Shown here: positions 8,590-64,000 of the stretch, piece by piece
How positions within the stretch are numbered: position 1 is the first letter of the stretch
Layout of the letters: each line of letters starts with the position of its first letter
Assembly: GCA_963799625.1 (NCBI GenBank)
Contig: CAWCXU010000001.1
Location: 57,979-121,978 of the forward strand
From: an uncultured Actinomycetes bacterium
GTDB lineage: Bacteria; Actinomycetota; UBA4738; HRBIN12
DNA length: 64,000 bases
Reading direction: 5' to 3'
Notes under the pieces: model-generated
What the model was told of the DNA's origin: nothing
What the model saw: the letters and a program-made list of their open reading frames with translations, nothing else
Databases searched by the model: none
Made by a program: the position numbers and the translations under genes

Positions 8590-8618
8590 CCGCGCGCATC
8601 GTAGGCGCGGCGCCGGAC

Positions 8619-18131: not shown

Positions 18132-18247
18132 CGTGAGGTACCCATCCTCTCGCGCAACGCTCGCCGGGACCACCCGACGTTGCGCCCGGGCGCACGCTTC
18201 GATGCTCGTTGGCCCCGCGCCGGCCACGGTCCGGGTAGCCTCATCGC

Positions 18248-24191: not shown

Positions 24192-24193
24192 GC

Positions 24194-25842: not shown

Positions 25843-25868
25843 GGCCCCGGCTCGGTCGGGAACGCGAA

Positions 25869-25897
25869 GGTGCCCGGCGGCTCCGCCGCCGGGCACC
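25869..25897. terminator. Perfect 13-bp GC hairpin, probable terminator of the minus-strand membrane-protein pair
   Basis: GGTGCCCGGCGGC-TCC-GCCGCCGGGCACC, 30 nt past the stop at 25928; no U-tract. Confidence 0.55.
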
Positions 25898-25927
25898 CCC
25901 GATCCTGCCGCACCCGAGGAGCGCGCA

Positions 25928-30301: not shown

Positions 30302-32891
30302 ATGGAGCAGAGAGCACGCCGGGACTCCATCTTCGTTCCGGCGACTCCGGGACGGCTGTGGTTGGGGATCGCGATCGCGGTCGTCTGTCCGCTCCTGATC
30401 ACGCCACTCGTGCGCACCGGCTCGCTCTCACTGGTGCCGGGCGTGCCCTACGTGCTCGCGATCGTCGCGGCGGCGCTCGTCGGCCGTCTGGTCGCCGCCG
30501 GCATCGCGGTGCTCACCTCGACCGTGCTCCTGGATCGTTTCGTGATCGCGTCTGCCGCCGGGACCGGGCAACGCACCGAGCAGGACGTGTGGGCGTTGGT
30601 CGCGTTCGTTGTCGTCGCGCTCGTCGTGGTCGAGCTGTTGGTTCGGCTCGAACGCACGGTCGGTCGCGAGGAGCGTGAGCGCGATCGACTGCGGTTCCTG
30701 GCCCGGGCCGGCGATGCCCTGTCAGGCTCGCTCGACGTGGAGGACACGCTCCGGGCGCTGAGCGAGGTGCTGGTGCCGGCGCTCGCCGACTGGTTCGCGG
30801 TGGATCTCCTGGAGGACAGCCGGATCCGCACGATCCTCGTCGTCCATCCCGATCCCGCGAAGGTCGCACTCGCGCGAGACCTCCAACGGCGCTTCCCGAC
30901 CGACCCCGATGCGCCGACCGGATCGCCGCACGTGATCCGGACGGGCGAGTCGGAGCTCACGCCCTCGATCCCCGACGAGATGCTCCGGGCATTGATCGAG
31001 GATCCCGAGCTCCTCGAGACGATGCGCGGCCTCGGCCTGCGCTGCGCGATGGTGGTACCGCTCACGGCTCGAGGGCGGACGTTCGGCGCGCTCACCTTGA
31101 TCGGGGCCGAGACGCACCCTCGCTACGACTCTGCAGACCTGCAGCTCGCAGAGGAGATCGCGGATCGAGCGGCGCTGGCGATCGACACCGCTCGGTCCTT
31201 CGCCGCCGAGAGCGAGGCTCGGGCCGCAGCCGTGGAGCTCGCCCGTCGCAACGAGGTGCTGAAGGACGTCACCGCCGCGTTCGGGCGGGCGGCGTCGGTT
31301 CCCGAGGTCCTCACCGCGATGCTCGAGCTGGGGGTCCGAACGGCGGGGGCGGCGGGGGCGACCGTCGGCATCGTCGAGGACGGCGGACGCGTGGATGTGG
31401 CCGGGCTGAGCGGCTACGAGCCCGACGATCGGCCCTACTGGAACACGTTCGCGCTCAGCGATCCGCTGCCGATGTCGGACGCGATCCGCGACCGGCAGCC
31501 GGTCGTCCTGTCGACCACCGAGGAGCGCGATCGCCTGTACCCGGCCCTGCGGGGCCGGGGAGAGCAGCGCGACCACGCGCTCGTGTGCCTGCCGCTGTTG
31601 CTCGGCGACGTCGCGATCGGCGCCTTCTCCGCCTCCTACCCCCCGGGGACCGACTTCGGTCACGAGGACCTGTCCTTCCTGCGCGCGATCGGCGAGCAGT
31701 GCGCGCAGGCCATCGACCGGGCGCGGTCACGCGAGCGGGCGGCGCGAGCGCGGTTGCGGTTCGACGCGCTCGCCACCGCCTCACGCACGCTCGCGCTGAC
31801 GCTCGACTACGAGGAGACCGCGCGGTCGGCGGTGCGGCTGGCCGTGGACCACCTGGGGGCTGAGGCGACCCTGTTCGTATCCGAGCGCGAGGGGCTGACC
31901 GCGATCGCGCACATGGCCGCCACGACGAGCGCGCCGGAGGCGTCGTCGGAGTCGCTCGAGCGGGCGGCGATGGCCGCGACCGAGCAAGGCGTCACCGTGT
32001 CCGAGCCCGGCGTCGCGATCGCGTTGCCGCTCACGATCGCCGGCACCACCTCGGGTGCGCTTGCGGTCGGCGCACCTGCGATCGACGCGGACGACGAGGA
32101 CGACCTCGCGTTCGCAAGGGAGGTGACCCGGCGGATCGCGCGGGCGATGGAGAACGCCCGGCTCTACCGGGACCGCGATCGGGTCGCCAAGACGTTGCAG
32201 GCGAGCCTGCTCCCGCCGCAGCTGCCCGTCGTGCCCGGGATGGACGTGGCGTCGCTGTTCCTGCCGGCGATCGCAGGCTACGAGGTCGGCGGCGACTTCT
32301 ACGACGTCTTCGAGCTCGACGACGGTCGGTGGGTCGCGCTCGTCGGCGACGTCTGCGGCAAGGGGCTCGAAGCGGCCGCGCTCACCGGGCTCGCGCGTCA
32401 CACGTTGCGAGCGGTCGCGAACGTCAAGCGGCCGAGCGAGGCGCTCGTCGAGCTCAACCGTGCGCTCCTGCGCGAACGGATCGACGGCCGGTTCTGCACG
32501 GTTGCCATCGCGATGCTGGAGGCGCCGGAGGGTCATGGCGCTCGCGTCACGGTCGCCGTCGGCGGGCACCCGCTGCCCCAACACGTCCTCGCGGACGGGA
32601 GCGGCGACGAGCGTCGGGCGTCACGGCACGCTGCTCGGCGTCGCCGAGAAGGTTGCCCTGCAGGATGACACCGTGATCCTCGAGCCGGGTGAGGCGCTCG
32701 TCCTGTTCACCGACGGGATCATCGGCAAGCGCGAGGAGGCCGAGGGCTCGGTCACTCTGCGGAGCGCGCTTCGGGCCGGGATGCCGGCATCGGCGGCCGA
32801 CCTGCGCGATCGGATCGAGCGGTCCGTTCGGGACGAGATGGGCAGCGATCAGCTCGACGACGTCGCCGTGTTGGTCCTGATGGCGCGCTGA
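30302..32891 (+). CDS. Membrane (DUF4118-like)-GAF-GAF-SpoIIE phosphatase, apparent frameshift near 32605
   Basis: N-term TM bundle; LVPALADWFAVDL GAF; EVGGDFYDVF, VGDVCGKG, GGHPLP, then shifted frame RHGTLLGV...LFTDGI...DDVAVLVL. Confidence 0.85.
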
Positions 32892-37135: not shown

Positions 37136-38104
37136 TCAGGACCGGGTTACCTCTGCTGGCGCTTCGCATCTGAGCTCGGCCCACACGACCTTGCCCGATC
37201 CCACCGACCCATCGCCCCACCGGTTCGCGACCGCGGCGACCAACGTCAGCCCGTGCCCCGATCTGGAGCCGCGAGGAGCCGTCGCCACCGTAGGCGCGAC
37301 AGATGAGGAGTCCTGGACCGAGATGCGGACGTTTCTTTCGCCGCGGGTAAGGGTGACGATGAAGTCAGACCGAGCGTGCACGACCGCATTGGTGGCCAGC
37401 TCGGTGACGATGAGCGCAGCGTCGTCGACCAGCCATGGGCATCGCCACGCCTCGAGCGTGTCCGCGACGAAGTGACGAGCGTCCCGCGGTGCGTACACCG
37501 TCCCCGCGAACCGGTGTGTTGCCTCAGCCAGCGCCGGCTCGGCTCCGTGGTCCTCGAGATGGCCGTTGACGCTCGAATGGAGGCGACAGAGCGTATCCAG
37601 GGCGGGGCGATGCTCGTCCTGTGTGATCGACCCTATGTGGTAGGCGCACAGCAACGAGAACGGCGTCTCGTTGCGGAGCTCGTTCCAACGGGATTCGAGG
37701 TCGAGTGCGGGAACCACATGGCCCCTGTCCCACAAGACCGCGACGATCTCGCCGTAGACAGAAACGTCACGTCCACTCTGCGCCGCTTCGCGAACGGTCG
37801 TTCCCACCAACGACTCGAAGCGCTCGCCGGTGAGGTCGCCATCTGCCAAGCTCGTCGCGACCTCCTCGGCGTCGATCGAGATCAACCGTCCGCTCGAGCG
37901 CATGTCCGAGACCGCGACGCCGAGGGACTCCATCGCAGCCCCGAAGGCGCGCGTGCGTTCCGACGTGGCAGCGATGATCGAGACGCCGCCCGCCCTGAGC
38001 GCATCGGTGAGGAACCGACCGACCTTGTCGCGCAGCTCGTCGTCGCGACGATAGAACAGCACGGCGTGATCCCGGGGCTCGACGTGTGGCTGTGCGACCG
38101 CCAT
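37136..38104 (-). CDS. MEDS sensory domain + HATPase_c_2 anti-sigma-like protein
   Basis: HAVLFYRRDDEL, VSVYGEIVAVLW, LESRWNEL, SLLCAY, then IVTELATNAVVHA, VQDSS, SGHGLTLVAAVANRWG. Confidence 0.85.
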   Translation of the reverse strand: MAVAQPHVEPRDHAVLFYRRDDELRDKVGRFLTDALRAGGVSIIAATSERTRAFGAAMESLGVAVSDMRSSGRLISIDAEEVATSLADGDLTGERFESLVGTTVREAAQSGRDVSVYGEIVAVLWDRGHVVPALDLESRWNELRNETPFSLLCAYHIGSITQDEHRPALDTLCRLHSSVNGHLEDHGAEPALAEATHRFAGTVYAPRDARHFVADTLEAWRCPWLVDDAALIVTELATNAVVHARSDFIVTLTRGERNVRISVQDSSSVAPTVATAPRGSRSGHGLTLVAAVANRWGDGSVGSGKVVWAELRCEAPAEVTRS

Positions 38105-38562: not shown

Positions 38563-39739
38563 GTGATCGACCCGCGCATCGACGCCGAGGCGCTCCGGAC
38601 CGAGCGACTCGCGCGCCTGCAGGCGGCGATGGCCGCACACGGCCTCGAGGCGTGCCTGCTGTTCAGTGAGCCGAACGTCCGGTACGCGACCGGCGCGATC
38701 ACGATGCCGGTCTGGTCGATGAGCACGTTCACAAGGTGCGCGGTCGTGCCCGCTGAGGGCGCGCCGATCTTGTTCGAGCACCCGAACTCGATGCATCGCG
38801 TCGACGGCGTCGATGTTCGCCCGATGCACGCCTGGGAGTTCTACGACGACGCGGTCACGCACGCGGACCGGTTCGCGGCCGAGGCGGTCGCGGCTCTGCG
38901 GGAGCTCGGCGTCGACGGGGGTCGAGTCGCGCTCGACCGGCTGGGCACACCGGGGTTCCTGGCGCTGCAGCAGGCCGGTCTCACGTTGGTGGATTCCTCA
39001 CCCGCCACCCAGGAAGCGCGCGAGGTGAAGACGCAGCAGGAGATCGCGCTGTTCCGGCTGAACGGCCCGATCGTGGTCGAGGCGCTCGGGGAGTTCGAGG
39101 CCGCGCTGCGGCCGGGCATCACCGAGCGCGAGCTGTTCGCCGTGCTCGCGGGCGGGATGCTTCGGCGCGGCGCCGAGTACCTGGCGACGAACACCATCTG
39201 CTCGGGGCCGAACACGAACCCGTGGCGCGCCGAAGCCACCGCCCGGGCGATCGAGGCCGGGGATCTCGTCTACCTCGACACCGACACGGTCGGGATCGGC
39301 GGTTGCTTCTTCTGCGTCTCGCGGACGTTCGTGTGCGGTGACGAGCCGCCGACGCCCGCGCAACGCGCGACCTACGAGGCCGCGCTCGAGTGGGTGACAG
39401 GGATGACCGCGTCTGGTCAGGCCCGGCGCGACGTGCGCCGAGCTCGCCGACGCGGCGCCGATCGTCCCCGAGCGGTACCGCGCGCAGCGGTACGAGTGCA
39501 TGGTGCACAGCGTCGGCCTCGAGGAGGAGAGCCCGAGCGTGTGCCACCCGCAGGACGTACAGAGCAACCCCGATCGCGTGATCCAGGCCGGGATGGTGCT
39601 CGTCGTCGAGACCTACATGGGGGCGGTCGGCGACGACCACGGGGTGAAGCTCGGCGACGTCGTGCTCGTCACGGAAGACGGCGCCGAGGTGCTCGCGCCC
39701 TATCCCTACGCGCGGAGCTTCGCGCCGGCCGGGTCGTAA
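38563..39739 (+). CDS. M24 pita-bread enzyme, DddP/creatinase-like subgroup, apparent frameshift near 39412
   Basis: RLARLQAAM...LLFSEPNVRYATG, SGPNTNPW, DTDTVG, (shift) LVRPGAT...QRYECMVHSVGLEEE, VVETYMG, GVKLGDVVLV. Confidence 0.75.
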
Positions 39740-42123
39740 GGCACCTCGGGCAGCGCGCGCGCCGCGCGCGCGATCCCGACGACATAGACGGTGAGGTCGG
39801 CACCGGCATCGAGGACGTCGGCGTCGACGTATGCGAGCGCGAGGCTCATGCCCACGTGGTGGCCGTACGCGCCCGACGTGACCAGCCCGACCAGCCGATC
39901 GCCGACCCAGATGCCGTCGTCCTGTGCCGCGTCTGCGTCACCGGCGTCGACCGCCAGGAGCGCCAGTCGGCGGGGCGGCCCGGTGTCACGGTCGCGCAGC
40001 GCGGCCTCGCGCCCGACGAAGTCACCTTTGTCATACGCGACGAACCTCGCGAGCCCCGCCGCGCCCGGTGTGTTCTCCTGCCGGAACTCGGCCGACCAGA
40101 TCCCGTAGCCCTTCTCCAGGCGCAGGCTGTCGACCGCGCGGTCGCCGATCGGGCGCAGACCCGCGCTCGCCCCGGCGTCCTGCAGCTCCGCCCACAGGGC
40201 ACGATGGCGGTCGCGCCGCACGACGATCTCGTACCCGAGCTCGCCGGTCAGTGAGATCCGTCCGACCACGGCCTGCGCGCTTCCGACCTCCATCACCCGA
40301 ACGCCGAGGAACGGGAACGCTTCGGTCGCGAGGTCCTCCCGCGTGAGCTTCGCGACGATCTCGCGCGCCGCCGGCCCCGACACCGAGAACCCCATGTGGT
40401 CGTCGGTGATGTTGTGGACCGTGACGTCGCTCGGCGGCAGGTGCTGGTGGAACCAACGCATGTGCCACGGCTGCAGGTAGTAGGAGCCCGTCAGCCAGAA
40501 GCGTTCATCGTCGAGCCGCGCGACCGTGAGGTCGCCCATCAGACGCCCGGCCGGGTTCAGCATCGGCGTGAGCCTGATCCGGCCGACCGACGGTATGTGG
40601 CCGGCCACCAGGTGATCGAGCCACGCCTCGGCGCCGCGCCCGCTGACTTCGTACCGCGCGTACTGGGCGATCTCGTAGGCGCCCGCGGCCTCGCGCGCCG
40701 CGGCGACCTCCTCGGCGACGATCGGCTCCGCGTTGGAGCGATCGAGCGTGTCGTGTTCCTCGAAGTCGGCGCTCGGGGCGAAGTACAACGGCACCTCGAG
40801 CCCGAAGTTCACGGTGAACCGTGCGTTCGCCGCGAGGAAGTCCTCGTAGCACGGCGTGGTCTTCAACGGCCGGCCCGCCGGCAGCTCCTCGTTCGGGAAC
40901 GCCATCACGAACCGGCGCGCGTAGAACTGCGCGGTGGTCGCGCGCAGGTACGTGTCCTCGGCCGCGTACTCGCCGAACCGTGCGACGTCCATCCCGAACG
41001 CGTCGACGCCCGGGTCGCCGTCGACGATCCAGTTCGCGAGGGCGAGCCCGATGCCGGCGCCCTGCGAGAACCCGGCCATCACGCCGCACGCTGCCCAGTA
41101 CCCGGGCACGCCGTCGACGGGACCGACCAGCGGGTTGCCGTCGGGCGTGAACGTGAACGCCCCGTTCACCCATCGCTTGATCCCGGTCTCCTGCAGGACC
41201 GGGAACCGCCGGAACCCGATCGTGAGCTCCGGCATGATCCGATCGAGCTCCTCGGGGAACAACGTCCGGCCGAAGTCCCACGGCGCGCCGTCGGTCTCCC
41301 AATGGCGTGGGTTCTGTTCGTAGAGGCCGAGCAGCACCCCGTTGCCCTCACGCTGCAGGTAGGTGAACCCCTCGAGGTCGGTGACGGCCGGCATCAACCC
41401 GTCGATCGCTGCGACCGCTGGGACGTCGTCGGTCACGAGGTAGTGGTGGGGCATCGGCACGAGCGGATGGTCGATGCCGACCATGCGGCCGATCCGCCGC
41501 GCCCACAGACCGCCCGCGTTGACGACGTGGTCGCATTCCACCCGGCCCTGCTCGGTCTCGACCCGCCATGCGCCGGACGGCAGGCGTTCGAGCCCGAGCA
41601 TCCGGTTGTGCTCGACGATGGACGCGCCGCGCCTCCGAGCGGCGACCGCGTAGGCGCGCGTCGCCCCGTTCGGGTCGAGGTTGCCTTCGTCGGGGTCGAA
41701 CAGCGCTCCGTAGATCCCGACGGGGTCGATGATCGGCACCATCTCTGCGGCTCGCTCGGCCGAGACGATGTACGCGTCGTCGTGACCCTGCGCGCGGAGC
41801 CATGCGAGCTCCTCCTGCAGCCACTCCCAACGTTCCTGGCTACCGGCGAGCTCGAGGCCGCCGGACATCTTGAGGCCGACGTCGACGCCGCTTTCTTCCT
41901 CGACCGTCGGGTACATCGAGATCGTGTAGAGCTGGAGCGCCGCGACCCGCGTGTCGGCATTGATCGCGTGGAAGCCACCGGCGGCGTGCCACGTGGAGCC
42001 CGCGGTGAGCTCTTCCCGCTCGAGCAGGAGCGTGTCGGTCTTGCCGCGGAGCGCAAGGTGATAGAGGACGGCGCAGCCCACGATCCCGCCGCCGACCACG
42101 ACGATCTCGTACCGATCCTTCAC
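39706..42123 (-). CDS. GcvT family FAD-dependent oxidoreductase (dimethylglycine/sarcosine dehydrogenase-like) #1
   Basis: VVVGGGIVG, ELTAGSTWHAAG, NGAFTFTPDGNPLVG, ISLTGELGYE, SLRLEKGY, VTSGAYG. Confidence 0.92.
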   Translation of the reverse strand: MKDRYEIVVVGGGIVGCAVLYHLALRGKTDTLLLEREELTAGSTWHAAGGFHAINADTRVAALQLYTISMYPTVEEESGVDVGLKMSGGLELAGSQERWEWLQEELAWLRAQGHDDAYIVSAERAAEMVPIIDPVGIYGALFDPDEGNLDPNGATRAYAVAARRRGASIVEHNRMLGLERLPSGAWRVETEQGRVECDHVVNAGGLWARRIGRMVGIDHPLVPMPHHYLVTDDVPAVAAIDGLMPAVTDLEGFTYLQREGNGVLLGLYEQNPRHWETDGAPWDFGRTLFPEELDRIMPELTIGFRRFPVLQETGIKRWVNGAFTFTPDGNPLVGPVDGVPGYWAACGVMAGFSQGAGIGLALANWIVDGDPGVDAFGMDVARFGEYAAEDTYLRATTAQFYARRFVMAFPNEELPAGRPLKTTPCYEDFLAANARFTVNFGLEVPLYFAPSADFEEHDTLDRSNAEPIVAEEVAAAREAAGAYEIAQYARYEVSGRGAEAWLDHLVAGHIPSVGRIRLTPMLNPAGRLMGDLTVARLDDERFWLTGSYYLQPWHMRWFHQHLPPSDVTVHNITDDHMGFSVSGPAAREIVAKLTREDLATEAFPFLGVRVMEVGSAQAVVGRISLTGELGYEIVVRRDRHRALWAELQDAGASAGLRPIGDRAVDSLRLEKGYGIWSAEFRQENTPGAAGLARFVAYDKGDFVGREAALRDRDTGPPRRLALLAVDAGDADAAQDDGIWVGDRLVGLVTSGAYGHHVGMSLALAYVDADVLDAGADLTVYVVGIARAARALPEVPYDPAGAKLRA

Positions 42124-42220
42124 GCGTGAACCGCCTTCGAGCAGGGAGAACGGGCGCGACGGAGTGTATGCGAGGCCCACACCACGCGAGGTGACCTCGG
42201 GTCGGTTTCCCCTTACCTCG

Positions 42221-54002: not shown

Positions 54003-56423
54003 TCAGGCGCGCAGCCGGGCGCCACTCGGGTCGAAGAGCGTGGTGGCCGCGATCCGCCCGTGCAGCGTGCGATCGAAGTAGCGAACCGAGATCTCCGTTC
54101 CGTCGTCGAGCCCGCTCGGGAGCCAGGCATACGCGAGGCTCCGCTCGACCGAGCCCCCCCATCCGGCGCTCGTGACGAAACCGACGGGTTCACCCTCCAC
54201 CTCGACCGGCTCCGCGCCCATCGCAACCTGCTCGTCGTCGAGCACGATCGTTCGCAGCGTGCGCGGCGAGGCGGCCCTGGTCGCGAGCGCATCGGCGCCG
54301 ATGAAGTCGCGATCGGTCGTGCGGACCGCGAAGCCGAGGCCGGCGTCGGCCGGCGCGTCGCCGCGGGTCATGTCGGTGCCCCACGCGCGATACCCCTTCT
54401 CGAGGCGGAGGGTCCCGAGCGCGGCACGACCCGCCGCGACCAGACCGTGGGCCGTTCCCGCCGACCACACCGCGTCCCAGAGCGTTCCCCCGTCGTTCGC
54501 GGCGCACGAGAGCTCCCACCCGAGCTCGCCGGCGTAGGAGATCCGAACGGCGTCGACCGCGATGCCGACGATCCGGATGGTCCGGGCGGCCCGGTACGGG
54601 AACGCGTCGTTCGACAGGTCGGCGTCCGCGATCGGCGCGAGGATCTCGCGGGCGAGCGGCCCCCACAGCGCGAGGTACGCGCGAGCGTCGGTCACCGGCT
54701 CGATCTCGACGTCACCGACCGCGTGAGCTCGGAGCCACGCGAGGTCGCGCGGCGAGTTCCCGGCGAGCACGAACCGCTCTTCGTCGAAGCGCGCCACGGT
54801 CACGTCCGAAACGATCCCGCCGTGTGTGTCGAGCATCACCGAGTAGGTCACGACGCCGGTAGGTCCGCCGGCGCGACCGGCGACCACGCGACGGAGCAGA
54901 TCCTGCGCGCCCGACCCGCGCACCTCGATCCGTGTCAGCGGCGTCATGTCGAACAGGCCCGCGCGCTCGCGGACCGCCCGGTGCTCCGCGGCCGCGATCG
55001 GCGACCAATGCCGCGCCGACCAGGTGTCTCGCTTGGGCACGCCGTTGACGAGTCGCGCGTTCGCCTCGTACCACTGCGGCCGCTCCCAGGTGGCGACGTC
55101 GACGAACGCCGCGTCGAGCGCACGTCCGCGCTCCGCGAACGCGCTGAACCGCACACCGCGCGCCGACGCATGCGGCTCCGCGGGGTGGTGCGCCAGGTAG
55201 ACGTCGGTGTATTGATCCGAGGACCGCGCCTCGAAGAAGGAAGGCTCGAGCTCCGGCTCGTCGAACCGCCCGAGGTCGGCGGGCGTCGCGTCGATCGCGG
55301 GGTCGCGGTCGCACAGCAGGTCGGCGACGATCTGTGCGACGCCGGCGGAGTGCGTGACCCACACCGACTCGGCGACCCAGAAACCTCGCAGGCCGGGATG
55401 CTCGCCGATCAGCGGGTACCCGTCCGGTGTGAACCCGAACACACCGTTGAACCGGCGCTCGAACCGCGCGCCGCTGAGCGCCGGCATGAACGCGCACGTG
55501 AGCTCCCACGCCTCGGCGAAGTCCTCCGGGGTGAACCCGAACGCGAGGCTCCGATGCTCGTTGCGCGCGTGCACGTCGAGGGCCGCCGACGGAACGGGCA
55601 GCACCTGATGGTGGAACGAGCCGACCCCGACGCGATCGCCGTGGTCGCGGTAGTAGATGCCGATGTCGTGGTGCCGGATGATCGGCCGCGTCGCCTCGCG
55701 CCCGGCGGCGTCGGCGAGCTCGGCGATCGGTGAGGTGATCGCGTACTGGTGCTCGGTCGGCAGCATCGGGAGCGTCAGCCCGACCGTCTCGGCCAGCGCC
55801 GGCCCCCACACGCCGGCGCAGCAGACGATGACGTCGGCGTCGATCGTGTCGCCGGTCGTCGTCCGCACCCCACGCACGGCGCCGCGGTCGGTGATGATCT
55901 CGGAGATCGCCGTGTCGCCGACGAAGCGCGCGCCGCCTTCGGCGGCGCGCCCCGCCTGGGCCTCCACCGCTCGGAGGGCTGCCGCGAGCCCCTCGCCGTC
56001 GGTTGTGTACGCGCCCAGCAGGCCGTCGCGCTCGATGGTCGGCCACATCCCGATCGCCTCGTCGGGGCCGATCATCCGGCCGTGCCAGCCGAAGGCTAGC
56101 GCCGCGCCCCAGCGTCTCCAGAGCTCGGCCAGCCGCTCCTCGGTGTAGGCGACCTCGAGCGTGCCGACCGGCAGCAGCGCGGGCCCCTCACCGGTCGACA
56201 GCGTCGCGAACTTGCGGACCGTCGCGTCAGCTGTCTCGGTCATGAACCGCGAGGTGCTCGTCCGGCTGATGAGGCCGGGGGCGTGCGAGGACGATCCGCC
56301 GGTCGCGAACAGCGGCCCCTTGTCGATGACCGTGACGTCGAGCTCGCCGCGGAGCACGAGCTCGTCGGCGAGCGCAGCGCCGACCACGCCGGCGCCGATG
56401 ATCACGATCCGCCGATGCGCCAT
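54003..56423 (-). CDS. GcvT family FAD-dependent oxidoreductase (dimethylglycine oxidase-like) #2
   Basis: IIGAGVVG, GGSSSHAPG, FNGVFGFTPDG, VWVTHSAG, ISYAGELGWE, LRLEKGYRAWG. Confidence 0.92.
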   Translation of the reverse strand: MAHRRIVIIGAGVVGAALADELVLRGELDVTVIDKGPLFATGGSSSHAPGLISRTSTSRFMTETADATVRKFATLSTGEGPALLPVGTLEVAYTEERLAELWRRWGAALAFGWHGRMIGPDEAIGMWPTIERDGLLGAYTTDGEGLAAALRAVEAQAGRAAEGGARFVGDTAISEIITDRGAVRGVRTTTGDTIDADVIVCCAGVWGPALAETVGLTLPMLPTEHQYAITSPIAELADAAGREATRPIIRHHDIGIYYRDHGDRVGVGSFHHQVLPVPSAALDVHARNEHRSLAFGFTPEDFAEAWELTCAFMPALSGARFERRFNGVFGFTPDGYPLIGEHPGLRGFWVAESVWVTHSAGVAQIVADLLCDRDPAIDATPADLGRFDEPELEPSFFEARSSDQYTDVYLAHHPAEPHASARGVRFSAFAERGRALDAAFVDVATWERPQWYEANARLVNGVPKRDTWSARHWSPIAAAEHRAVRERAGLFDMTPLTRIEVRGSGAQDLLRRVVAGRAGGPTGVVTYSVMLDTHGGIVSDVTVARFDEERFVLAGNSPRDLAWLRAHAVGDVEIEPVTDARAYLALWGPLAREILAPIADADLSNDAFPYRAARTIRIVGIAVDAVRISYAGELGWELSCAANDGGTLWDAVWSAGTAHGLVAAGRAALGTLRLEKGYRAWGTDMTRGDAPADAGLGFAVRTTDRDFIGADALATRAASPRTLRTIVLDDEQVAMGAEPVEVEGEPVGFVTSAGWGGSVERSLAYAWLPSGLDDGTEISVRYFDRTLHGRIAATTLFDPSGARLRA

Positions 56424-56427
56424 CGGT

Positions 56428-56670
56428 TCACCCCTGCTCGGGTTCGAGGATGGCACGGGCGATCCCGCGCGCCTCGTCGAGGCGCTCTCGATCGACGAAC
56501 ACGTTGGCGTCGCGCTCGAGGAACGTCAGGAAGCCCGAGCTCGGCGCCTTGACCCACCACACGATCCCGGCCTCCTCGAGCACCGCCCCGATCTCCTCGG
56601 CGTGCTCCGGGGTACAGGCGCACAGATGGACGGTCTTGACCCCCGCCGGCACGTCCCAGATCCGTCGCAC
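56428..56670 (-). CDS. Small hypothetical protein (DUF2007-like)
   Basis: AEEIGAVLEEAGI...VFVDRERLDEARGI pattern. Confidence 0.5.
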   Translation of the reverse strand: MRRIWDVPAGVKTVHLCACTPEHAEEIGAVLEEAGIVWWVKAPSSGFLTFLERDANVFVDRERLDEARGIARAILEPEQG

Positions 56671-56725: not shown

Positions 56726-59182
56726 TTACGCCTTGATCCGCTTCCGCTTCGGGTCGTACATCGGCTCGAGCGAGACGGTGACGGGGTAGCGCCGTCCGAC
56801 GATGTCGGCCTCCCAGGACCCGCTCAGCAGGAACCCGTCGGTGATGTCCTCGTCGCGCTCGATCATCGCGAGGCCGACCGACCCGCCGAGCGTGTGCCCG
56901 TACGCGCCGTTGCGGATCTCGCCGACGTGCTCGCCGTCGCGGTAGAGCTGTTCGTCGCCGTAGAGCAGGGGTTCCGGGTCACCGATCAGCACCTGCACCA
57001 TCCGTGCGGTCCGGATGCCTGAGTCGCGCTGCTTGACGAGCGCCTCCTTGCCGATGAACCCGCTCGGCTTGTCCCACGCGATCGTGAAGTCGATGCCGGC
57101 GTCGATCAGCGTGTCGCCGTTGTCGATGTCGATCCCGTAGTCGCGGTACGCCTTCTCCAGGCGCAGGGAGTTCAGAGCCAGCAACCCCGCGTGCCGGATC
57201 CCGAGGTCTTGTCCTGCCTCGAGCAGCGCGTCGTACACGATCACCGCCTGGTCGCTCGGCACGTGGAGCTCCCACCCGAGCTCACCGAGGTAGGTCACGC
57301 GGATCGCGTACGCGAGGCCCATGCCCACCTCGATCTCCTTCGCCCGCATATAGGGGAAGGCCTCGTTCGAGAGGTCGGCGGTGGTCAGACGTGCGAGGAG
57401 CTCCCGCGACCGTGGCCCTTGCACCGTGAGGAGCATCCGGGAGCTCGTCATGTCGGTGACGATCACGACCTCGCCCTCGGCGCGCTGACGCTCGAGCCAC
57501 CCGAGCATCCGCCGGTGGATCACGTCGGCCCCGATCACGAGGAACGTGTCCTCGGCGGTCCGGGTCACCGTGAGGTCCGTCCAGATCTTGCCGTTCGGTG
57601 TGCACCAGTGCGTGTAGGTGATCTTGCCGACCGGCACGTCGAGCTCGCTCACGCTCACACGGTTGAGCAGTGTGAGCGCGTCCGGCCCCTGCACCTTGAG
57701 CGTCGCCATGAACGACATGTCCATGATCCCGACCGCCTCGCGCACCGCCACGTGTTCCTTTGCCCACGCATCGAACGACTGGTCGCGCAGCCACCCCTGC
57801 GGTCGCTCGTGGCTGACCCCTTTGGGGGCGAACCACTCTGGCACCTCGTAGCCCGTGAGCACCACGAAGTCGGCGCCGGCATCGGTGAGCCGGTCGTGGA
57901 TCGGCGACCGGCGAGCCCCGCGCGCGGTCCACGGCCGCCACGACGGGAACGCGGCGTCGCCGAACAGCGTGCCGAGGAGCTCGACCGTCTTCTGCTCGCG
58001 GAACGCGCGCGTGGCCATGAACGGCATGAGCCGGTCCGGCGAGATCCCCGTGACCTCGAGCGGCGGTTCCCCGTCGACGATCCACTGCGCGATCATCGAG
58101 CCCGCGCCGCCCGACAGCAGGATGCCGAGCGAGTTCAGCCCGCACGCGGCGAAGAACCCGCGGAGCTCGGGCACCTCGCCGAGCAGCGGACCGTTATCCG
58201 AGGTGAAGCTCTCCGGCCCGCAGAAGAACTGCCGGATCCCGGCGTCGTGCAGCGACGGGAACCGGTCCATCGCGTCGGAGAGGAACCCGGCCATCCGATC
58301 CCAGTCCGGCGGCAGCACCGCGAACCCGAGGTCCTGCGGGATCGTGTCGAGGGACCACGGTGCCGCCTTGGGTTCGAACAGCCCGACCAACACGCCGCCG
58401 CCTTCCTCGCGGTAGTAGCCGTAGCGGTCGGGGTCTTCGACGACGGGCAGGTCGGGATGCGCCCACTCGACCTCGTCGGTCAGCAGGTAGTAGTGCTCGG
58501 CAGCTTGCAAGGGGAGGGACACGCCGGCGAGCGCGCCGAGCTGGCGGCCCCACATGCCGGCCGCGACCACCACGGTCTCGGTCTCGATCGTGCCGTGGTC
58601 GGTCTCGACCCCGGTCACGGCGCCGTTCGCGGTCGTGAAGCCGGTGACGGTCACGCCCTCGACGATCTTCGCGCCCGCCGCCCTCGCGCCCTTCGCGTAG
58701 GCCTGCGCGACGTCGGCGGGGTTCGCGCGGCCTTCGTCGGGCACCCAGGCCGCGGCGAGGATGTCGTCGACCTTCGCCGAGGGCCAGTGTCGACCAACCT
58801 CCTCGGGACCGACCATCTCGACCGGCACGCCGTGGGCCTTCGCGAAGATCGCCTCACGGGTGACGGTCTCGAGCCGTTGGGGTGTGCACGCGAGGTGCAG
58901 ATGGCCGATCGTCCGGAACCCGGTGTCCTGCCCCGTCTCCGCAGTGAGGGTCGGCAACAGCTCGGTGGTGTAGCGCGACATCCAGAGGTAGGTCTCCGTC
59001 GGCATGCCGGCGCTGGTGATCAGGCCGGCCGCGTGCCACGTGGTGCCGGCCGTCAGCTCTTTGCGTTCGAGCAGCACGACATCAGTGACGCCCAGCTTGG
59101 TCAGGTGATAGGCGGTGCTGGTGCCGATCGCGCCTCCGCCGATCACGACGACCTGGGCGCGCGCTGGAAGTACGTCCGTCAT
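56726..59182 (-). CDS. GcvT family FAD-dependent oxidoreductase (sarcosine/dimethylglycine dehydrogenase-like) #3
   Basis: VIGGGAIG, LTAGTTWHAAG, FCGPESFTSD, VTYLGELGWE, SLRLEKAY, YGHTLGG. Confidence 0.92.
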   Translation of the reverse strand: MTDVLPARAQVVVIGGGAIGTSTAYHLTKLGVTDVVLLERKELTAGTTWHAAGLITSAGMPTETYLWMSRYTTELLPTLTAETGQDTGFRTIGHLHLACTPQRLETVTREAIFAKAHGVPVEMVGPEEVGRHWPSAKVDDILAAAWVPDEGRANPADVAQAYAKGARAAGAKIVEGVTVTGFTTANGAVTGVETDHGTIETETVVVAAGMWGRQLGALAGVSLPLQAAEHYYLLTDEVEWAHPDLPVVEDPDRYGYYREEGGGVLVGLFEPKAAPWSLDTIPQDLGFAVLPPDWDRMAGFLSDAMDRFPSLHDAGIRQFFCGPESFTSDNGPLLGEVPELRGFFAACGLNSLGILLSGGAGSMIAQWIVDGEPPLEVTGISPDRLMPFMATRAFREQKTVELLGTLFGDAAFPSWRPWTARGARRSPIHDRLTDAGADFVVLTGYEVPEWFAPKGVSHERPQGWLRDQSFDAWAKEHVAVREAVGIMDMSFMATLKVQGPDALTLLNRVSVSELDVPVGKITYTHWCTPNGKIWTDLTVTRTAEDTFLVIGADVIHRRMLGWLERQRAEGEVVIVTDMTSSRMLLTVQGPRSRELLARLTTADLSNEAFPYMRAKEIEVGMGLAYAIRVTYLGELGWELHVPSDQAVIVYDALLEAGQDLGIRHAGLLALNSLRLEKAYRDYGIDIDNGDTLIDAGIDFTIAWDKPSGFIGKEALVKQRDSGIRTARMVQVLIGDPEPLLYGDEQLYRDGEHVGEIRNGAYGHTLGGSVGLAMIERDEDITDGFLLSGSWEADIVGRRYPVTVSLEPMYDPKRKRIKA

Positions 59183-59220
59183 GGTGCCTCCTGGGCGCCC
59201 CGGCGGAGCGCGCGGACATG

Positions 59221-59575
59221 CTAGCGGGCGCCCGTTGCGTGCAGATAGTTCGCGCGATACCTCTCGTCGGGGTCGAACCGTCGTGCCTGCCGCTCTACGT
59301 CCATCGCCATACCGCGCCGCGGGTTCGCACCCGTGCCGGCCACCAATTGCGAGTTGCCCAGGTTGCTTGGCGGGTGGCCTCGACCTGGTGACGGTCGAAG
59401 TACGCTGCGCCGTCGTGCACCGCCTCGATCAGGAACGAGGAGCGGTTGGTGACCTGCCAAGGAGCCGCGGGTCGAGCACCACCAGGGGAAGCACCTCGCC
59501 CGCACGCACCGCGGCCGCGAAGGCGGAGTGGTAGTGAACCCGGAGGTCCCGGGTGAACACAGCGAGGGTCCGCAT
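59221..59575 (-). pseudogene. Collapsed photolyase/cryptochrome remnant (N-terminus joined to C-terminus)
   Basis: FTRDLRVH...VLPLVVLDPRLL, (shift) PNRSSFLIEAVHD, then GAAYFDRHQVE, (shift) PSNLGNSQLVAGTG...RQARRFDPDERY. Confidence 0.7.
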
Positions 59576-59633
59576 CGTTAGGAACGCGGCGAGCGACGGG
59601 CCCATGGTGCGAAGCCCGTCGCGCCGCTCGCGT

Positions 59634-59861
59634 CTAGCCGGTGCAGCCGTGTGCAGCGAGGATCGCCGGGTCGGCGAAGGCCGCCGCACCACCGGCGTAG
59701 TTGCTATGGAACGCGGTGCCGGTCGACTTCGCCGCCGAGATCAGCTGGCCGAAGCTCGCGCCGCACGCAGCCTTGATGTCGGTCCCGGGGGCGGCGGACG
59801 CCGTTCCCGTGATGGCGAGGCTGCCCGCGACGATCGTCAGGGCGATCAGCGTTCGCTTCAT
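59634..59861 (-). CDS. 75-aa secreted protein with two cysteines
   Basis: Signal peptide MKRTLIALTIVAGSLAITGTASA; KAACG...AHGCTG; GGAGG SD. Confidence 0.7.
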   Translation of the reverse strand: MKRTLIALTIVAGSLAITGTASAAPGTDIKAACGASFGQLISAAKSTGTAFHSNYAGGAAAFADPAILAAHGCTG

Positions 59862-59876
59862 GCTGTCCTCCGTTCG

Positions 59877-60113
59877 TCAGGCGAGCGCGTGCGCACGCTC
59901 GTCGTGCGTCCCGAGCAACGTCGTCGCCCGAGCAGCGATCCAGATGCCGGACAGGCCCACGAGGGCGTACACCACCCGCGAGGCCGCGTCCGTCTGCCCG
60001 AACTCCATGCCGAAGATCTTCGCGACGAGATCGAACTCGGCGAGCGCCACGAGCCCCCAGTTCAGGGCCCCGACGATCACCAGCACTAGCGCCGCGGTGT
60101 CGAGCTTCCGCAT
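59877..60113 (-). CDS. DUF378 family membrane protein
   Basis: ALVLVIVGALNWGLVALAEFDLVAKIFG...VYALVGLSGIW; GGAGGAGG SD. Confidence 0.88.
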   Translation of the reverse strand: MRKLDTAALVLVIVGALNWGLVALAEFDLVAKIFGMEFGQTDAASRVVYALVGLSGIWIAARATTLLGTHDERAHALA

Positions 60114-60128
60114 CGTCCTCCTCCCTTC

Positions 60129-60201
60129 TGTCGAGGTTTTGTCTAGGCACTGTACGCTCGTACCTCCGAAGCTGTCAAGGGTGCGTCTAGGTATCTGCAC
60201 A
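60129..60201 (-). promoter_or_regulatory. CarH-type operator (11-bp direct repeats) overlapping a sigma-70 promoter
   Basis: Minus-strand hexamers TCGACA, TAGACA, CGTACA, TTGACA, TAGACG at plus 60129, 60140, 60151, 60173, 60184; TTGACA-18 nt-TACAGT promoter. Confidence 0.75.
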
Positions 60202-60223
60202 AGGATGGTTTAAGGTTCATTGC

Positions 60224-61081
60224 GTGGAGACGGCGGCGCGTGTACGGATCGGAGAGCTGGCTCGAAGGACGGGCGTCTCGGCGGAGTTGCTGCGCGCGTG
60301 GGAGCAGCGCTACGGGCTGCTCCGGCCGGAGCGTTCTGCCGGTGGGTTCCGCCTCTACAGCCCCGCTGACGAGGCTCGGGTTCGCCGGATGACGGCGCTG
60401 ATCGCGTCGGGGGTGTCGGCGTCCGAGGCGGCGGCGCGAGCGACGAGCGACGAACCGGTGGCGCCGGGCGGGGCGGCGACCGACGAGCTCGCCACCGAGC
60501 TTCGCGCTGCGCTCGATCGCTTCGATGGTGAGGCCGCCCACGACGCGCTCGACCGGCTGTTCGCGACCGTGTCGATCGAACTGGTGATCACCGAGGTCGT
60601 CCTACCGCTCCTGCACGAGCTCGGCGACCGCTGGGAAGCCGGGACGGCGACCGTCGGGCAGGAGCACTTCGCATCGAGCTTGATCCGCGGCCGGCTGCTG
60701 GCGCTCGGTCGCGGATGGGCAGGAGGCTCAGGGCCGGCGTTCGTGTTGGCGTGCCCGCCGAGCGAGGAGCATGACCTCGGCCTCGTGATGTTCGGGATCA
60801 TTCTCGCTCGTCGAGGCGCGAGGATCGTGTTCCTCGGAGCCGACACTCCGATCGCCACCATCGTGGAGACCGTTCGCGACGTCGCGCCCGACGGACTGGT
60901 GATCGCGGCCACCCGGCCGCAGCCCGTGGCGGCCGCCGCGACGGACCTCGCTGCGGTGGCCGCCGCTCACGTGCCCGTGTACCTCGGTGGCGCTGGGGCG
61001 GACGATCGTGTCGTCGCCGCAGTGGGCGGACGACCGCTCGACGGCAACCTCTTGGCCGCCGCCAGGGCGCTGACCGCCTAG
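60224..61081 (+). CDS. carH: MerR-family cobalamin-binding photoreceptor/regulator (CarH/LitR-like)
   Basis: IGELARRTGVSAELLRAWEQRYG HTH; WEAG...QEHFAS (W-x9-EH); PPSEEHDLG B12-binding motif; FLGADTP. Confidence 0.85.
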   Translation: METAARVRIGELARRTGVSAELLRAWEQRYGLLRPERSAGGFRLYSPADEARVRRMTALIASGVSASEAAARATSDEPVAPGGAATDELATELRAALDRFDGEAAHDALDRLFATVSIELVITEVVLPLLHELGDRWEAGTATVGQEHFASSLIRGRLLALGRGWAGGSGPAFVLACPPSEEHDLGLVMFGIILARRGARIVFLGADTPIATIVETVRDVAPDGLVIAATRPQPVAAAATDLAAVAAAHVPVYLGGAGADDRVVAAVGGRPLDGNLLAAARALTA

Positions 61082-61260
61082 GAGAAGCGTCCGCGGCGCT
61101 TGGGTGCGACCTCGGCCTCGGCCTCGCGGCGCTCGGCCATCACCGCGCGGAGCTCGGCCTCGATCGAGGTCGTGCGGAGGGGGAGATCCGCGAGCCGTGC
61201 GCGAAGAGCGGTGTTGTCGTAGGGCAGGAAGCCGGGGGTGTTGCTCTCGATGCCAGCCAT
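61078..61260 (-). CDS. 60-aa hypothetical protein
   Basis: MAGIESNTPGFLPYDNTALRARLADL...; GAGG SD; helical composition. Confidence 0.45.
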   Translation of the reverse strand: MAGIESNTPGFLPYDNTALRARLADLPLRTTSIEAELRAVMAERREAEAEVAPKRRGRFS

Positions 61261-61398
61261 CCGATGGGTCCTCTCCATAAGGGAGGCCCATCGTGCGCCG
61301 CGGCATGCCCGCCGCACATCGGTCCCACGGCTCTTCCCCTGGGTCCATCCGCGCGTCCGCCGCGCCTTAGGCCCTTCGCAGAGCCTCGGCCATGTCGC

Positions 61399-61950
61399 TT
61401 ACCTAGGTTCGGGTGCACGGCGGCGCTCCATCCGCACGACGTGCCAGGTCTGCTCGTCCTCGCGTTCGTCGAAGCGCTGCACGACAGGGAGTCCCACCTT
61501 CGCCGCGACGCGGACCGAGGCGATGTTGCTCGCTTCGGCGTAGGCGCGCACGAGCTCTGCGTCCAACGTGTCGAACACGTAGTCGACGAGCGCCCCGACG
61601 GCCTCGGTCGCGTAGCCGTTGTTCTGGGCCCCCGGGTCCATCGTGTAGCCGACCAGGATCACGTCGGGCTCGTCGGTGTCGACGCGGATACCCACGTCGC
61701 CCACGAGCGTGTCGTCCTCCAGGGTCTCGACCGTGAACTGGACCCACCCGCCGGCCTCGCCGGGCGCCCGGGTGAGCATCTCCTCGATCTCGGTGCGGAC
61801 GTGGTCGGGGTCGGTGCGGCCCCAGCCCTGGTGGGCGTGGACCTCGGGGTCGCTGCGGTAGGCCGAGATCTGCTCGGCGTCCCGGGGCTCGGAGCGGCGC
61901 AGGCGCAGGCGGGCGGTCCGCAGCTCATCGAACCCGGGGTCGGCGCGCAT
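61399..61950 (-). CDS. GNAT N-acetyltransferase (RimJ/RimL family)
   Basis: LRTARLRLRR, LVGDVG, LVGYTMDPGAQNNGYATEAV, NIASVRVAAKVG. Confidence 0.88.
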   Translation of the reverse strand: MRADPGFDELRTARLRLRRSEPRDAEQISAYRSDPEVHAHQGWGRTDPDHVRTEIEEMLTRAPGEAGGWVQFTVETLEDDTLVGDVGIRVDTDEPDVILVGYTMDPGAQNNGYATEAVGALVDYVFDTLDAELVRAYAEASNIASVRVAAKVGLPVVQRFDEREDEQTWHVVRMERRRAPEPR

Positions 61951-62784: not shown

Positions 62785-64000
62785 TTGACCGACCGCACGA
62801 CGATCGCGTTCTTCCCGGAGCCGGGCGCCTGGGGACCCACGAACAACTGCGTCGCGATCGCGAACGTCCTGAAGGAACGCGGCCACCGGATCGTGTTCGT
62901 GATCGACGAGTCGTTCACGGGCGTCCTCGAGGCCAAGGGGTTCGAGGAGCGGCTGATGCGGATGACGCCCCCCGATGAGAACGCCGACCCCGACGGCCGA
63001 CCCCTGGGGCGAGTTCATCAGGGTGACGGCGCCCGAGTTCCGCAAGCCGACGATCGAGCAGATCGAGACGGTGACGAAGCCGATCTGGGAGGCCCTCGTC
63101 GCGGGGGAGCGCTACAGCCACGAGACGGTGATGGGCATCTGGGACGACGTCCACCCCGACGTCGTCGTCACGGACAACGTCACCGGCTATCCGGCGATCG
63201 AGCTCGCGGGGTGCCCATGGGTGCGGTTCGTATCGGCCAATCCGCTCGAGATGCGCGACGAGCTGTTGCCGCCGGTGCTGTCGGGACTCCCCGTCGCCGA
63301 CTCGGGCCAGTGGGGAGCGTTCCGCGAGGAGTACCACCGGCAGCACGAGGAGCTGCTGACCCAGCACAACGACTTCCGGGCCTCGGTCGGCGTGGCGCCC
63401 TGCCCGCTCGACGAGTTCAACACCCACTCGCCGTGGCTGAACCTGTACCTGTTCCCCGAGGCGGCCGACTACGCGCGGAAGGAACCGCTCGGGCCGACGT
63501 GGCACCGGCTGCAGTCGACCGTGCGGACGGGCGAAGCGCCGTTCGACGTCGCGTCGCAGGTGCCGGGGACCGGGAAGGTCGTCTACCTGTCGCTGGGGTC
63601 GCTCGGGTGCATGGACGTCGGACTGATGCAGCGGCTGATCGACGCGATGGCGACGACCGAGCACCGCACGATCGTGTCGATGGGCCCGCTGAAGGATCAG
63701 ATGACGCTCGGGCCGAACATGTACGGCGACGAGTTCCTGCCCCAGCCCTCGATCCTGCCGCAGTGCGACCTGCTGATCACCCACGGCGGCAACAACACGA
63801 CGTGCGAGGGGTTCCACTTCGGGCTGCCGATGATCGGGCTGCCGCTGTTCTGGGACCAGTACGACAACGCGCAGCGTCTCGACGAGACCGGGTTCGGCGT
63901 GCGCCTGCCGACCTACGACTGGGAACCGTCGCAGCTGACCGGGGCGGTCGACCGGCTGCTGGGCGACGAGGGCCTCGCCGCGCGGATGAAGGACATCTCG
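62785..64000 (+). CDS. GT1 (MGT/UDP-glycosyltransferase) family protein, apparent frameshift near 62990, runs off the window
   Basis: FFPEPGAWGPTNNCVAIA...RGHRIVF; VYLSLGSLG; LPQPSILPQCDLLITHGGNNT...GLPLFWDQYDNAQRL. Confidence 0.88.
   Translation, partial: MTDRTTIAFFPEPGAWGPTNNCVAIANVLKERGHRIVFVIDESFTGVLEAKGFEERLMRMTPPDENADPDGRPLGRVHQGDGARVPQADDRADRDGDEADLGGPRRGGALQPRDGDGHLGRRPPRRRRHGQRHRLSGDRARGVPMGAVRIGQSARDARRAVAAGAVGTPRRRLGPVGSVPRGVPPAARGAADPAQRLPGLGRRGALPARRVQHPLAVAEPVPVPRGGRLRAEGTARADVAPAAVDRADGRSAVRRRVAGAGDREGRLPVAGVARVHGRRTDAAADRRDGDDRAPHDRVDGPAEGSDDARAEHVRRRVPAPALDPAAVRPADHPRRQQHDVRGVPLRAADDRAAAVLGPVRQRAASRRDRVRRAPADLRLGTVAADRGGRPAAGRRGPRRADEGHL

Follow-up and report, generated by a model that had tools for sequence, protein, structure and literature searches.

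A predicted CarH-type photoregulatory switch with a two-part operator over a DUF378 operon in an uncultured actinobacterium

To our knowledge, the B12-dependent regulators CarH and LitR have been treated in the literature almost entirely as switches for light-induced carotenoid synthesis. What would such a regulator control at a locus where its divergent neighbor encodes a small protein of the DUF378 family? The question is raised by positions 59877 - 61081 of a 64,000-nucleotide stretch (the window) of contig CAWCXU010000001.1, which comes from an uncultured Actinomycetes bacterium. The sequence makes it very likely that this locus is a CarH-type photoregulatory switch acting on carH itself and on a DUF378 operon, through an operator composed of two sub-sites.

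The segment consists of two divergent transcription units that are 110 bp apart, with carH on the plus strand and DUF378 on the minus strand. The genes that follow carH are convergent with it, and carH is therefore monocistronic. On the minus strand, DUF378 is followed by an open reading frame (ORF) of 75 residues, by the fragments of a photolyase gene and then by the gene of an 818-residue DAO/GCV_T oxidase. Antisense ORFs, such as the one at 59701 - 60213 and 'cluster 8', are artifacts of a simple ORF caller and were disregarded. The genes of the locus are as follows.

60224 - 61081, plus strand: gene of the carH/litR type, 285 residues, with a GTG start, no Shine-Dalgarno sequence and an mRNA predicted to be leaderless
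59877 - 60113, minus strand: DUF378 gene, 78 residues, small membrane protein, ATG at 60113, match to PF04070 with an E-value of 1e-22
59634 - 59861, minus strand: gene of a 75-residue protein with a signal peptide (cleavage after ...TASA), two cysteines and its own GGAGGA site, starting 15 bp past the DUF378 stop
59221 - 59575, minus strand: photolyase pseudogene, fragments in two reading frames

The N-terminal part of the carH product is a MerR winged-helix DNA-binding domain (MerR_1, PF13411, residues 8 - 69, E-value 3e-14). The C-terminal part contains a full B12 module, made up of a four-helix bundle (B12-binding_2, PF02607, residues 90 - 158, E-value 1e-12) and a Rossmann fold (B12-binding, PF02310, residues 173 - 259, E-value 9e-9). 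The best solved relatives are the structures of Thermus thermophilus CarH/LitR (5C8D and 3WHP), matched over the full length with an E-value of about 1e-31, and the full-length identity to Thermus CarH is about 33%. The DNA-binding domains of the two proteins align, and their recognition-helix and wing segments are similar. The Wx9EH motif, which lies on the upper face of adenosylcobalamin (AdoCbl), is present as W137-EAGTATVGQ-E147-H148. The lower-axial histidine, H183, is found in E181-E-H183-DLG, an instance of the E/DxHxxG pattern, and both elements align with the equivalent residues of the Thermus protein. The top NCBIfam family is TransRegCarH (NF052513, 154 bits, residues 8 - 272 against positions 8 - 264 of 274). 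By every sequence criterion the regulator classifies as a CarH-type AdoCbl-dependent photoreceptor, and an earlier interpretation of the letters alone (the sequence-only reading), which had proposed just such a B12-dependent photoreceptor, is borne out by the domains, the similarity to Thermus CarH, the ligand residues and the best family match.

For comparison, one genome per species was scanned, giving 241 relatives. The best 80 of these, 46 - 77% identical, are called here the related loci, and individual loci are cited by L numbers. They belong without exception to Actinomycetota and derive mostly from soil metagenome-assembled genomes of Thermoleophilia, Gaiellales, Solirubrobacterales, Acidimicrobiia and Jiangellaceae. 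Nocardioides is also represented, including the cultured N. halotolerans DSM 19273 (L049) and strain TF02-7.

The region between the two genes contains two clusters of direct repeats, all units of which are oriented in the sense of DUF378, together with the predicted promoter elements.

60129 - 60150, minus strand: operator cluster A, with units A1 (60129 - 60139, TGTCGAGGTTT) and A2 (60140 - 60150, TGTCTAGGCAC)
60173 - 60217, minus strand: operator cluster B, with units B1 (60173 - 60183, TGTCAAGGGTG), B2 (60184 - 60194, CGTCTAGGTAT), b3 (60196 - 60206, TGCACAAGGAT) and b4 (60207 - 60217, GGTTTAAGGTT)
60173 - 60178, minus strand: DUF378 -35 element TTGACA, inside repeat B1, from the promoter scan and the relatives
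60149 - 60154, minus strand: DUF378 -10 element TACAGT, after an 18-nt spacer
60211 - 60216, plus strand: predicted carH -10 element TAAGGT, inside the degenerate repeat b4 and 7 nt upstream of the GTG start
60117 - 60125, minus strand: DUF378 ribosome-binding site GGGAGGAGG, read from the sequence and conserved in the alignment of close relatives

The CarH repeat has been defined experimentally as 5'-nnnnTnnACAn-3'. Three such repeats are found in Thermus and four in Bacillus, the -35 element TTGACA lies inside one of them, and pseudo-repeats are tolerated (PMC9304148). The repeats of the window are of this type, as had been claimed from their TnnACA core. The units of cluster B follow nnnnnTnnACA on the minus strand; B1 is perfect, the units at 60184, 60196 and 60207 are degenerate, and the last two, b3 and b4, are pseudo-repeats. 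Cluster B extends from the DUF378 -35 element to the -10 element of the leaderless carH gene, and cluster A spans the point at which DUF378 transcription is predicted to begin (about 60142), together with the initial ~14 nt of the leader. Tandem 11-bp repeats thus overlap the -35 element, the transcription start and the carH -10 element. The pair of TTGACA (60178 - 60173) and TACAGT (60154 - 60149) on the minus strand is the only sigma-70-like promoter found in 58900 - 61500, and the proposal that the repeats cover this divergent promoter, at its -35 and at its -10 and start, agrees with the sequence.

A weight matrix was built from 220 repeats of the relatives. Its consensus is TGT[C/A]nAG[R]GT[Y], which gives nnnnnTnnACA when reverse-complemented. 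In the window, the only strong tandem pairs start at 60129 (26.7 bits) and at 60173 (23.2 bits). The third-ranking pair, at 5.8 bits, is b3 + b4 (60196 - 60217) within the same site. When the DNA of the related loci was scanned (618 kb), 233 of the 239 strong tandem pairs were found in the roughly 200 bp that precede carH; they were spread over 78 of the 80 loci and occurred whatever the neighboring gene. One of the two remaining loci has merely 42 bp of upstream sequence.

The intergenic regions share a common plan. In the DUF378 sense, cluster B, with 3 - 4 units and the -35 element in the promoter-proximal one, is followed by a spacer of 17 - 18 bp, the -10 element, cluster A, the ribosome-binding site and the ATG. 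Cluster A comprises two or three repeats over the transcription start and early leader in nearly all of the 55 loci that carry DUF378. In the close relatives cluster A is invariant and the columns of cluster B are conserved; the repeats and promoter hexamers are conserved, the spacer between -35 and -10 is not. Across 56 related intergenic regions the -35 element is TTGACA in 50 and TTGACG in six, and the hexamer that lies 17 - 18 bp from it is TAnnnT in 45 and CAnnnT in nine. On the carH side, a TAnnnT hexamer, usually preceded by TGT, stands 5 - 9 nt (mostly 6 - 7) before the start codon in 77 of the 80 loci. Because of this position carH is predicted to be leaderless in these 77 loci, with its -10 element inside the last repeat.

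Do these repeats form one array or two? The sequence-only reading had described five repeats in exact 11-bp phase. The hexamers in question, TGTCGA at 60129, TGTCTA at 60140, TGTACG at 60151, TGTCAA at 60173 and CGTCTA at 60184, are all in place, spaced by 11-bp steps with 60162 skipped. Read on the minus strand, those at 60129 (TCGACA), 60140 (TAGACA) and 60173 (TTGACA) are perfect matches to TnnACA, and those at 60151 (CGTACA) and 60184 (TAGACG) are one letter off. The window holds no other such phased set. The pattern TGTNNA-N5-TGTNNA-N5-TGT occurs once in its 64 kb against 0.01 expected from shuffles, and when the 127,880 start positions of the two strands were compared, 60129 alone had five or more out of six in-phase hexamers within one mismatch of TGTNNA, three or more of them perfect.

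An exact lattice from 60129 to 60184 could mean that five (or six) repeats make up a single uninterrupted operator, kept in strict 11-bp register with one position left empty, and that one extended assembly of CarH binds it on one face of the DNA. The relatives make this improbable. Between the last repeat of cluster A and B1, the repeat with the -35 element, the distance ranges from 29 to 36 bp across 56 sequences and is exactly 33 bp in only four, the window included. It is therefore by coincidence that the window sequence keeps the lattice perfectly across the gap, and a strict 11-bp lattice was rejected as a design feature. The hexamer at 60151 was rejected as a true repeat as well. It overlaps the -10 element, and in the closest relatives this position reads CACCCT, CCTTAC, CGGTAC or AACCCT rather than TGTnnA, so that L001 - L004, L088 and L089 have no repeat there. 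Furthermore, while the B1 - B2 spacing is 11 bp in 53 of the 56 sequences, the next units follow at 11 - 13 bp, and the unit after B2 is 12 bp away in most relatives, as it is in the window (60184 to 60196). The 11-bp register thus holds for the window, and the single array gives way to two clusters. Likewise, the operator does reach the carH promoter as had been suggested, although the degenerate units at 60196 and 60207, which lie over the carH -10 element, had been missed. The operator seems best described as two sub-sites of 2 + 4 units with the same orientation throughout; the number of CarH oligomers that they bind, and any cooperation between them, we infer.

A different arrangement is seen in loci of the Solirubrobacterales type that lack DUF378 (L055, L062 - L068, L070, L074 - L078 and L080). 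Three repeats with a common orientation adjoin carH, and another two or three, oriented the other way, lie farther upstream; the regulator family is the same but its operator is built differently. Strong tandem repeats away from carH were noticed at L061:5150-5260 and L046:2985-3030. The former is a second, Thermus-like operator of three repeats, with the -35 element TTGACA in the last repeat and then TATGTT, upstream of the gene of a secreted 369-residue protein rich in Ala, Thr and Gly. In L046, a small minus-strand ORF of about 70 residues has three repeats directly against its ribosome-binding site.

The first gene of the divergent unit is a clear member of its family, scoring 80.2 bits against PF04070, for which the cut-off is 25. 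Its product is predicted to be a two-helix membrane hairpin. The AlphaFold2 model consists of helices 2 - 33 and 43 - 77 with a mean predicted local distance difference test (pLDDT) score of 75, and a search for related solved structures gave no match even at E = 1. The invariant core of the family, NWGL...FDLVA...R..Y.LVG, is common to rhizobial, Burkholderiales and Bacillus members. A longer version of 107 residues initiated at a GTG was rejected, as the conserved N terminus and the ribosome-binding site favor the ATG at 60113. The leader is too short for a cobalamin riboswitch, and an Rfam scan of it returned nothing credible, the sole match being a nematode snoRNA (E = 0.29).

The 75-residue protein has no match in Pfam or NCBIfam and recurs in this position in L001, L002, L004, L009, L089 and L090. 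Since its ORF starts 15 bp after the DUF378 stop, the two genes are probably co-transcribed. No terminator-like site was found in 58900 - 61500. The photolyase remnant gives sub-threshold Pfam matches to DNA_photolyase (PF00875) and FAD_binding_7 (PF03441) in different frames, and falls short of a complete photolyase. The history of this remnant can be read from L089, a JGI metagenome contig whose DUF378 protein is 86% identical to that of the window. There, carH is divergent from DUF378, which is followed by the 75-residue gene, an intact photolyase gene (398 residues, both Pfam domains) and a DAO/GCV_T oxidase gene. In a blastn comparison, 62499 - 59412 of the window corresponds to 2588 - 5717 of L089, and 59412 - 56001 corresponds to 6557 - 9970. 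The window photolyase is dead because 839 bp have been deleted internally, with the junction near 59412 and a shift of the frame. A tblastn search with the L089 photolyase shows that codons 1 to about 55 and about 336 - 398 of 398 are kept, with NWQW changed to NSQL. The remnant is somewhat larger in L001, and essentially none is left in L004. Given the intact gene in L089, the remnants in the window and in L001 and its loss in L004, the ancestral operon of the lineage would therefore have been DUF378, small secreted protein and photolyase under CarH control. The regulated unit proposed by the sequence-only reading, in which the photolyase was already recognized as dead, has its intact counterpart in L089.

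The oxidase gene belongs to a set of three paralogs of about 820 residues (39706 - 42180, 54003 - 56456 and 56726 - 59182, all on the minus strand) that combine DAO, FAO_M, GCV_T and GCV_T_C domains and are of the dimethylglycine/sarcosine oxidase type. Two of them come immediately after the photolyase remnant, separated from each other by an 80-residue ORF (56428 - 56670) that is conserved in the relatives.

Is the pairing of carH with DUF378 a peculiarity of this genome? A synteny survey, which had been suggested as a check, found DUF378 divergent from carH in 55 of the 80 loci, mostly about 100 - 160 bp upstream of carH. The gene after DUF378 encodes a fasciclin-domain protein in 23 of the 55 loci, the 75-residue protein in six, a heliorhodopsin in two (L037 and L072) and a short-chain dehydrogenase/reductase (SDR) in one. 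Of the 25 loci that lack DUF378, 14 have a fasciclin gene divergent from carH, with an operator of two oppositely oriented repeat sets. In L017 (L017:1100-1360) a heliorhodopsin gene takes the place of DUF378, divergent from carH and behind the same layout of cluster A, -10, -35 and cluster B, and in L054 a heliorhodopsin gene follows three fasciclin genes. L042 is listed with L017, L037, L072 and L054 among the heliorhodopsin loci. A B12 photoreceptor may thus control the expression of a retinal photoreceptor. In studies of heliorhodopsins, genes for MerR proteins, SDRs and photolyases were reported as frequent neighbors and were discussed as possible interaction partners (PMC11109279). Genes often found downstream of carH are those for UvdE and for a NAD-binding SDR, the latter a homolog of the NDUFA9-like gene in the carH-ldrP operon of Thermus, and TspO, MMPL and fasciclin families also occur around carH in the related loci.

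The lack of local crt genes, which had likewise been claimed, was found again on a wider scale. A scan of 27 window ORFs, which took in all 25 that reach 250 residues and two shorter ones, detected none, and in a search with Thermus CrtB as the probe a crtB homolog lies within about 4 kb of carH in only one of the 80 related loci (L039), leaving 79 without a nearby crtB.

Outside this group, DUF378 occurs in other company. The best 120 of the 3285 matches of a DUF378 protein search were close relatives only, at 65 - 99% identity. None of seven plasmid-borne DUF378 genes from other phyla adjoins carH. On two Sinorhizobium/Rhizobium plasmids (L083:2489-3773 and L085:2989-4274) there is a cluster of fasciclin, DUF378 and tspO genes with a divergent regulator gene of the XRE family and without carH. 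The recurrence of fasciclin, DUF378 and TspO around carH and in rhizobia suggests a module conserved across phyla. A literature search found no paper linking DUF378 or fasciclin with CarH/LitR, and no light-related literature on DUF378.

We infer the binding, the oligomeric state, the light response and the role of DUF378, and the steps of the switch are proposed here by homology to the CarH proteins of Thermus and Bacillus. Oligomers of CarH loaded with AdoCbl would, in the dark, bind the nnnnTnnACAn repeats in the 110-bp region between carH and DUF378. One oligomer on cluster B would shut both divergent promoters, and carH would be autoregulated, because cluster B covers the DUF378 -35 and the carH -10 elements. 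Cluster A would provide an additional block at the site where DUF378 transcription starts. Light would photolyse AdoCbl, dissociate the oligomer and free both promoters, resulting in the induction of carH and of the operon of DUF378, the 75-residue secreted protein and the photolyase, the last of which is destroyed in the window genome. The output would be direct, with neither an adjacent LdrP or LitS relay nor local carotenoid genes. To call this output photoprotective is speculative.

Photochemistry cannot be read from a sequence, and B12-independent paralogs such as CarA exist (PMC9304148). The regulator might accordingly be a MerR protein that binds B12 but is blind to light, reporting the availability of AdoCbl or, like CarA, needing another partner. 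This is quite unlikely, as the Wx9EH motif and the lower-axial histidine are both present, Wx9EH being kept in 80 of the 80 relatives, and the surrounding genes (photolyase, UvdE, heliorhodopsin) are typical of a light response. Hardly any credence can be given to a third explanation, namely that the repeats serve another direct-repeat regulator, e.g. an OmpR-type response regulator, or are a promoter feature unrelated to CarH, for although several regulator families use direct repeats at about one helical turn, these repeats track carH next to DUF378, fasciclin or heliorhodopsin genes and occur almost nowhere else in the 618 kb, their consensus equals the experimentally defined one, and the recognition helix and wing are close to those of Thermus CarH.

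Several observations weigh against a working CarH switch at this locus. The carH product misses the equivalog cut-off of NF052513, which is 400 bits; we read this as a failure of narrow orthology and not of family membership, the cut-off being very high for a homolog with 33% identity. The B2 unit is TGT in 53 of 56 relatives and is therefore weakened in the window. Because B2, b3 and b4 all deviate from TnnACA, the occupancy of cluster B could be weaker in the window than in the relatives. Cluster A has only two good repeats compared to the three or four that are used by characterized CarH tetramers. Furthermore, the organism is known solely from soil and rhizosphere metagenomes. No RNA runs containing the window segment were found, all matches being to soil and rhizosphere DNA metagenomes, and the L049 locus as a query gave weak partial matches only.

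The predicted CarH switch can be compared with those already described. Thermus CarH (LitR, TT_P0056, on pTT27) has the same domain architecture and the same residues for AdoCbl binding and photochemistry. Its operator also consists of tandem 11-bp nnnnTnnACAn repeats, one of which contains the -35 element TTGACA, and its gene is also leaderless, with the -10 element TACCCT 6 nt before an ATG, compared to the 6 - 7 nt found here. A photolyase, UvsE/UvdE and an NDUFA9-like SDR are encoded in both neighborhoods. However, the Thermus repeats run in the carH sense and TTGACA is the -35 element of carH, whereas here they run in the sense of the divergent gene and TTGACA belongs to DUF378. In Thermus, crtB-phr is reached via LdrP, an activator encoded in the carH operon, whereas here carH is monocistronic and no ldrP gene adjoins it. 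The locus also differs in that an additional repeat cluster covers the start site of DUF378 transcription, and in that the divergent operon begins with DUF378 instead of crtB.

Streptomyces LitR is likewise an actinobacterial AdoCbl-dependent regulator of the LitR/CarH type. It acts on crt genes via LitS, an adjacent extracytoplasmic function (ECF) sigma factor, whereas neither a litS nor any other sigma factor gene adjoins carH here. In Bacillus (Priestia) megaterium and myxobacteria, the CarH operators consist of four tandem units or of DR/dr mixtures that overlap the -35 or -10 element (PMC9304148), and cluster B fits this description. The genes controlled there are carotenoid genes, however, and the text of the same paper mentions no additional cluster located where transcription of a non-carotenoid gene begins. 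Thus the sensor and the repeat type are already known from Thermus, Bacillus and myxobacterial CarH, whereas the orientation of the repeats, the extra cluster at the start site, the lack of an LdrP or LitS relay and the non-carotenoid output are different.

The rhizobial nex18-SMa1078-tspO cluster resembles the related loci in another way. In the rhizobia, DUF378 is located between a fasciclin gene and tspO, the same families that surround carH in Actinomycetota, but carH is missing and the divergent regulator belongs to the XRE family. In S. meliloti, nex18 (a fasciclin gene), SMa1078 and tspO change together in microarrays (PMC2848241); SMa1078 is taken to be the DUF378 gene from its position. 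In M. kansasii, phrB-tspO-mmpL and two fasciclin genes are light-induced (PMC9861118).

Further genes of the window may be mentioned. A GT1-family glycosyltransferase of the UDPGT/EryCIII-like type (62975 - 64000, plus strand) is encoded about 2 kb downstream of carH and is kept in L001 - L005, L019 and L089. It is conserved alongside genes for a GNAT protein, an AhpC/TSA-like protein and a YrhK-like membrane protein, and no operator was found in front of it. A signaling cluster of the partner-switching type (13707 - 18227, minus strand; 22625 - 23512, minus; 23853 - 24577, plus; 30302 - 32668, plus; 37136 - 38104, minus) encodes a 1506-residue PAS-GAF-SpoIIE-HATPase_c_2 protein, a second GAF-SpoIIE protein, a MEDS-HATPase_c_2 protein and a group-3-like sigma factor, as well as two small ORFs that resemble an anti-sigma antagonist and an anti-sigma factor. 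A type IB topoisomerase (Topoisom_I and Top1B_N_bact domains), an enzyme uncommon in bacteria, is encoded at 24790 - 26025 on the minus strand.

As for the function of DUF378, a working hypothesis based on co-location is that it is a membrane component of an envelope module, together with fasciclin and often with TspO or heliorhodopsin, needed under light or photo-oxidative stress. A broader proposal, which we regard as tentative and as less likely than not, is that this is an old cross-phylum module that responds to light or photo-oxidative stress, that in many Actinomycetota it, rather than carotenoid synthesis, is the primary direct output of CarH, and that in some lineages CarH directly gates heliorhodopsin. 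If true, this would be a two-photoreceptor cascade, in which a green-light B12 sensor decides when a retinal sensor is made.

For the group as a whole, the loci indicate that a clade of mostly soil Actinomycetota (Thermoleophilia, Gaiellales, Solirubrobacterales, Nocardioides, Jiangellaceae and Acidimicrobiia) would wire CarH directly to a non-carotenoid set of genes, and almost never to crt genes. The set consists of DUF378, fasciclin-domain proteins, the small secreted protein, photolyase, heliorhodopsin, the NDUFA9-like SDR and UvdE. Such wiring would also account, at the level of regulation, for the 'MerR' and 'SDR' genes reported as frequent neighbors of heliorhodopsin genes (PMC11109279). 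The two-sub-site operator, with its orientation reversed relative to Thermus, would add to the known plasticity of DNA recognition by CarH and could serve in the design of optogenetic promoters. The window itself appears to be a case of natural regulon decay, in which the photolyase has been deleted and the sensor, the operator and DUF378 have been kept. For DUF378, a widespread family, a first regulatory context is thereby predicted from sequence only, and the hypothesis is testable in the cultured N. halotolerans DSM 19273 (L049).

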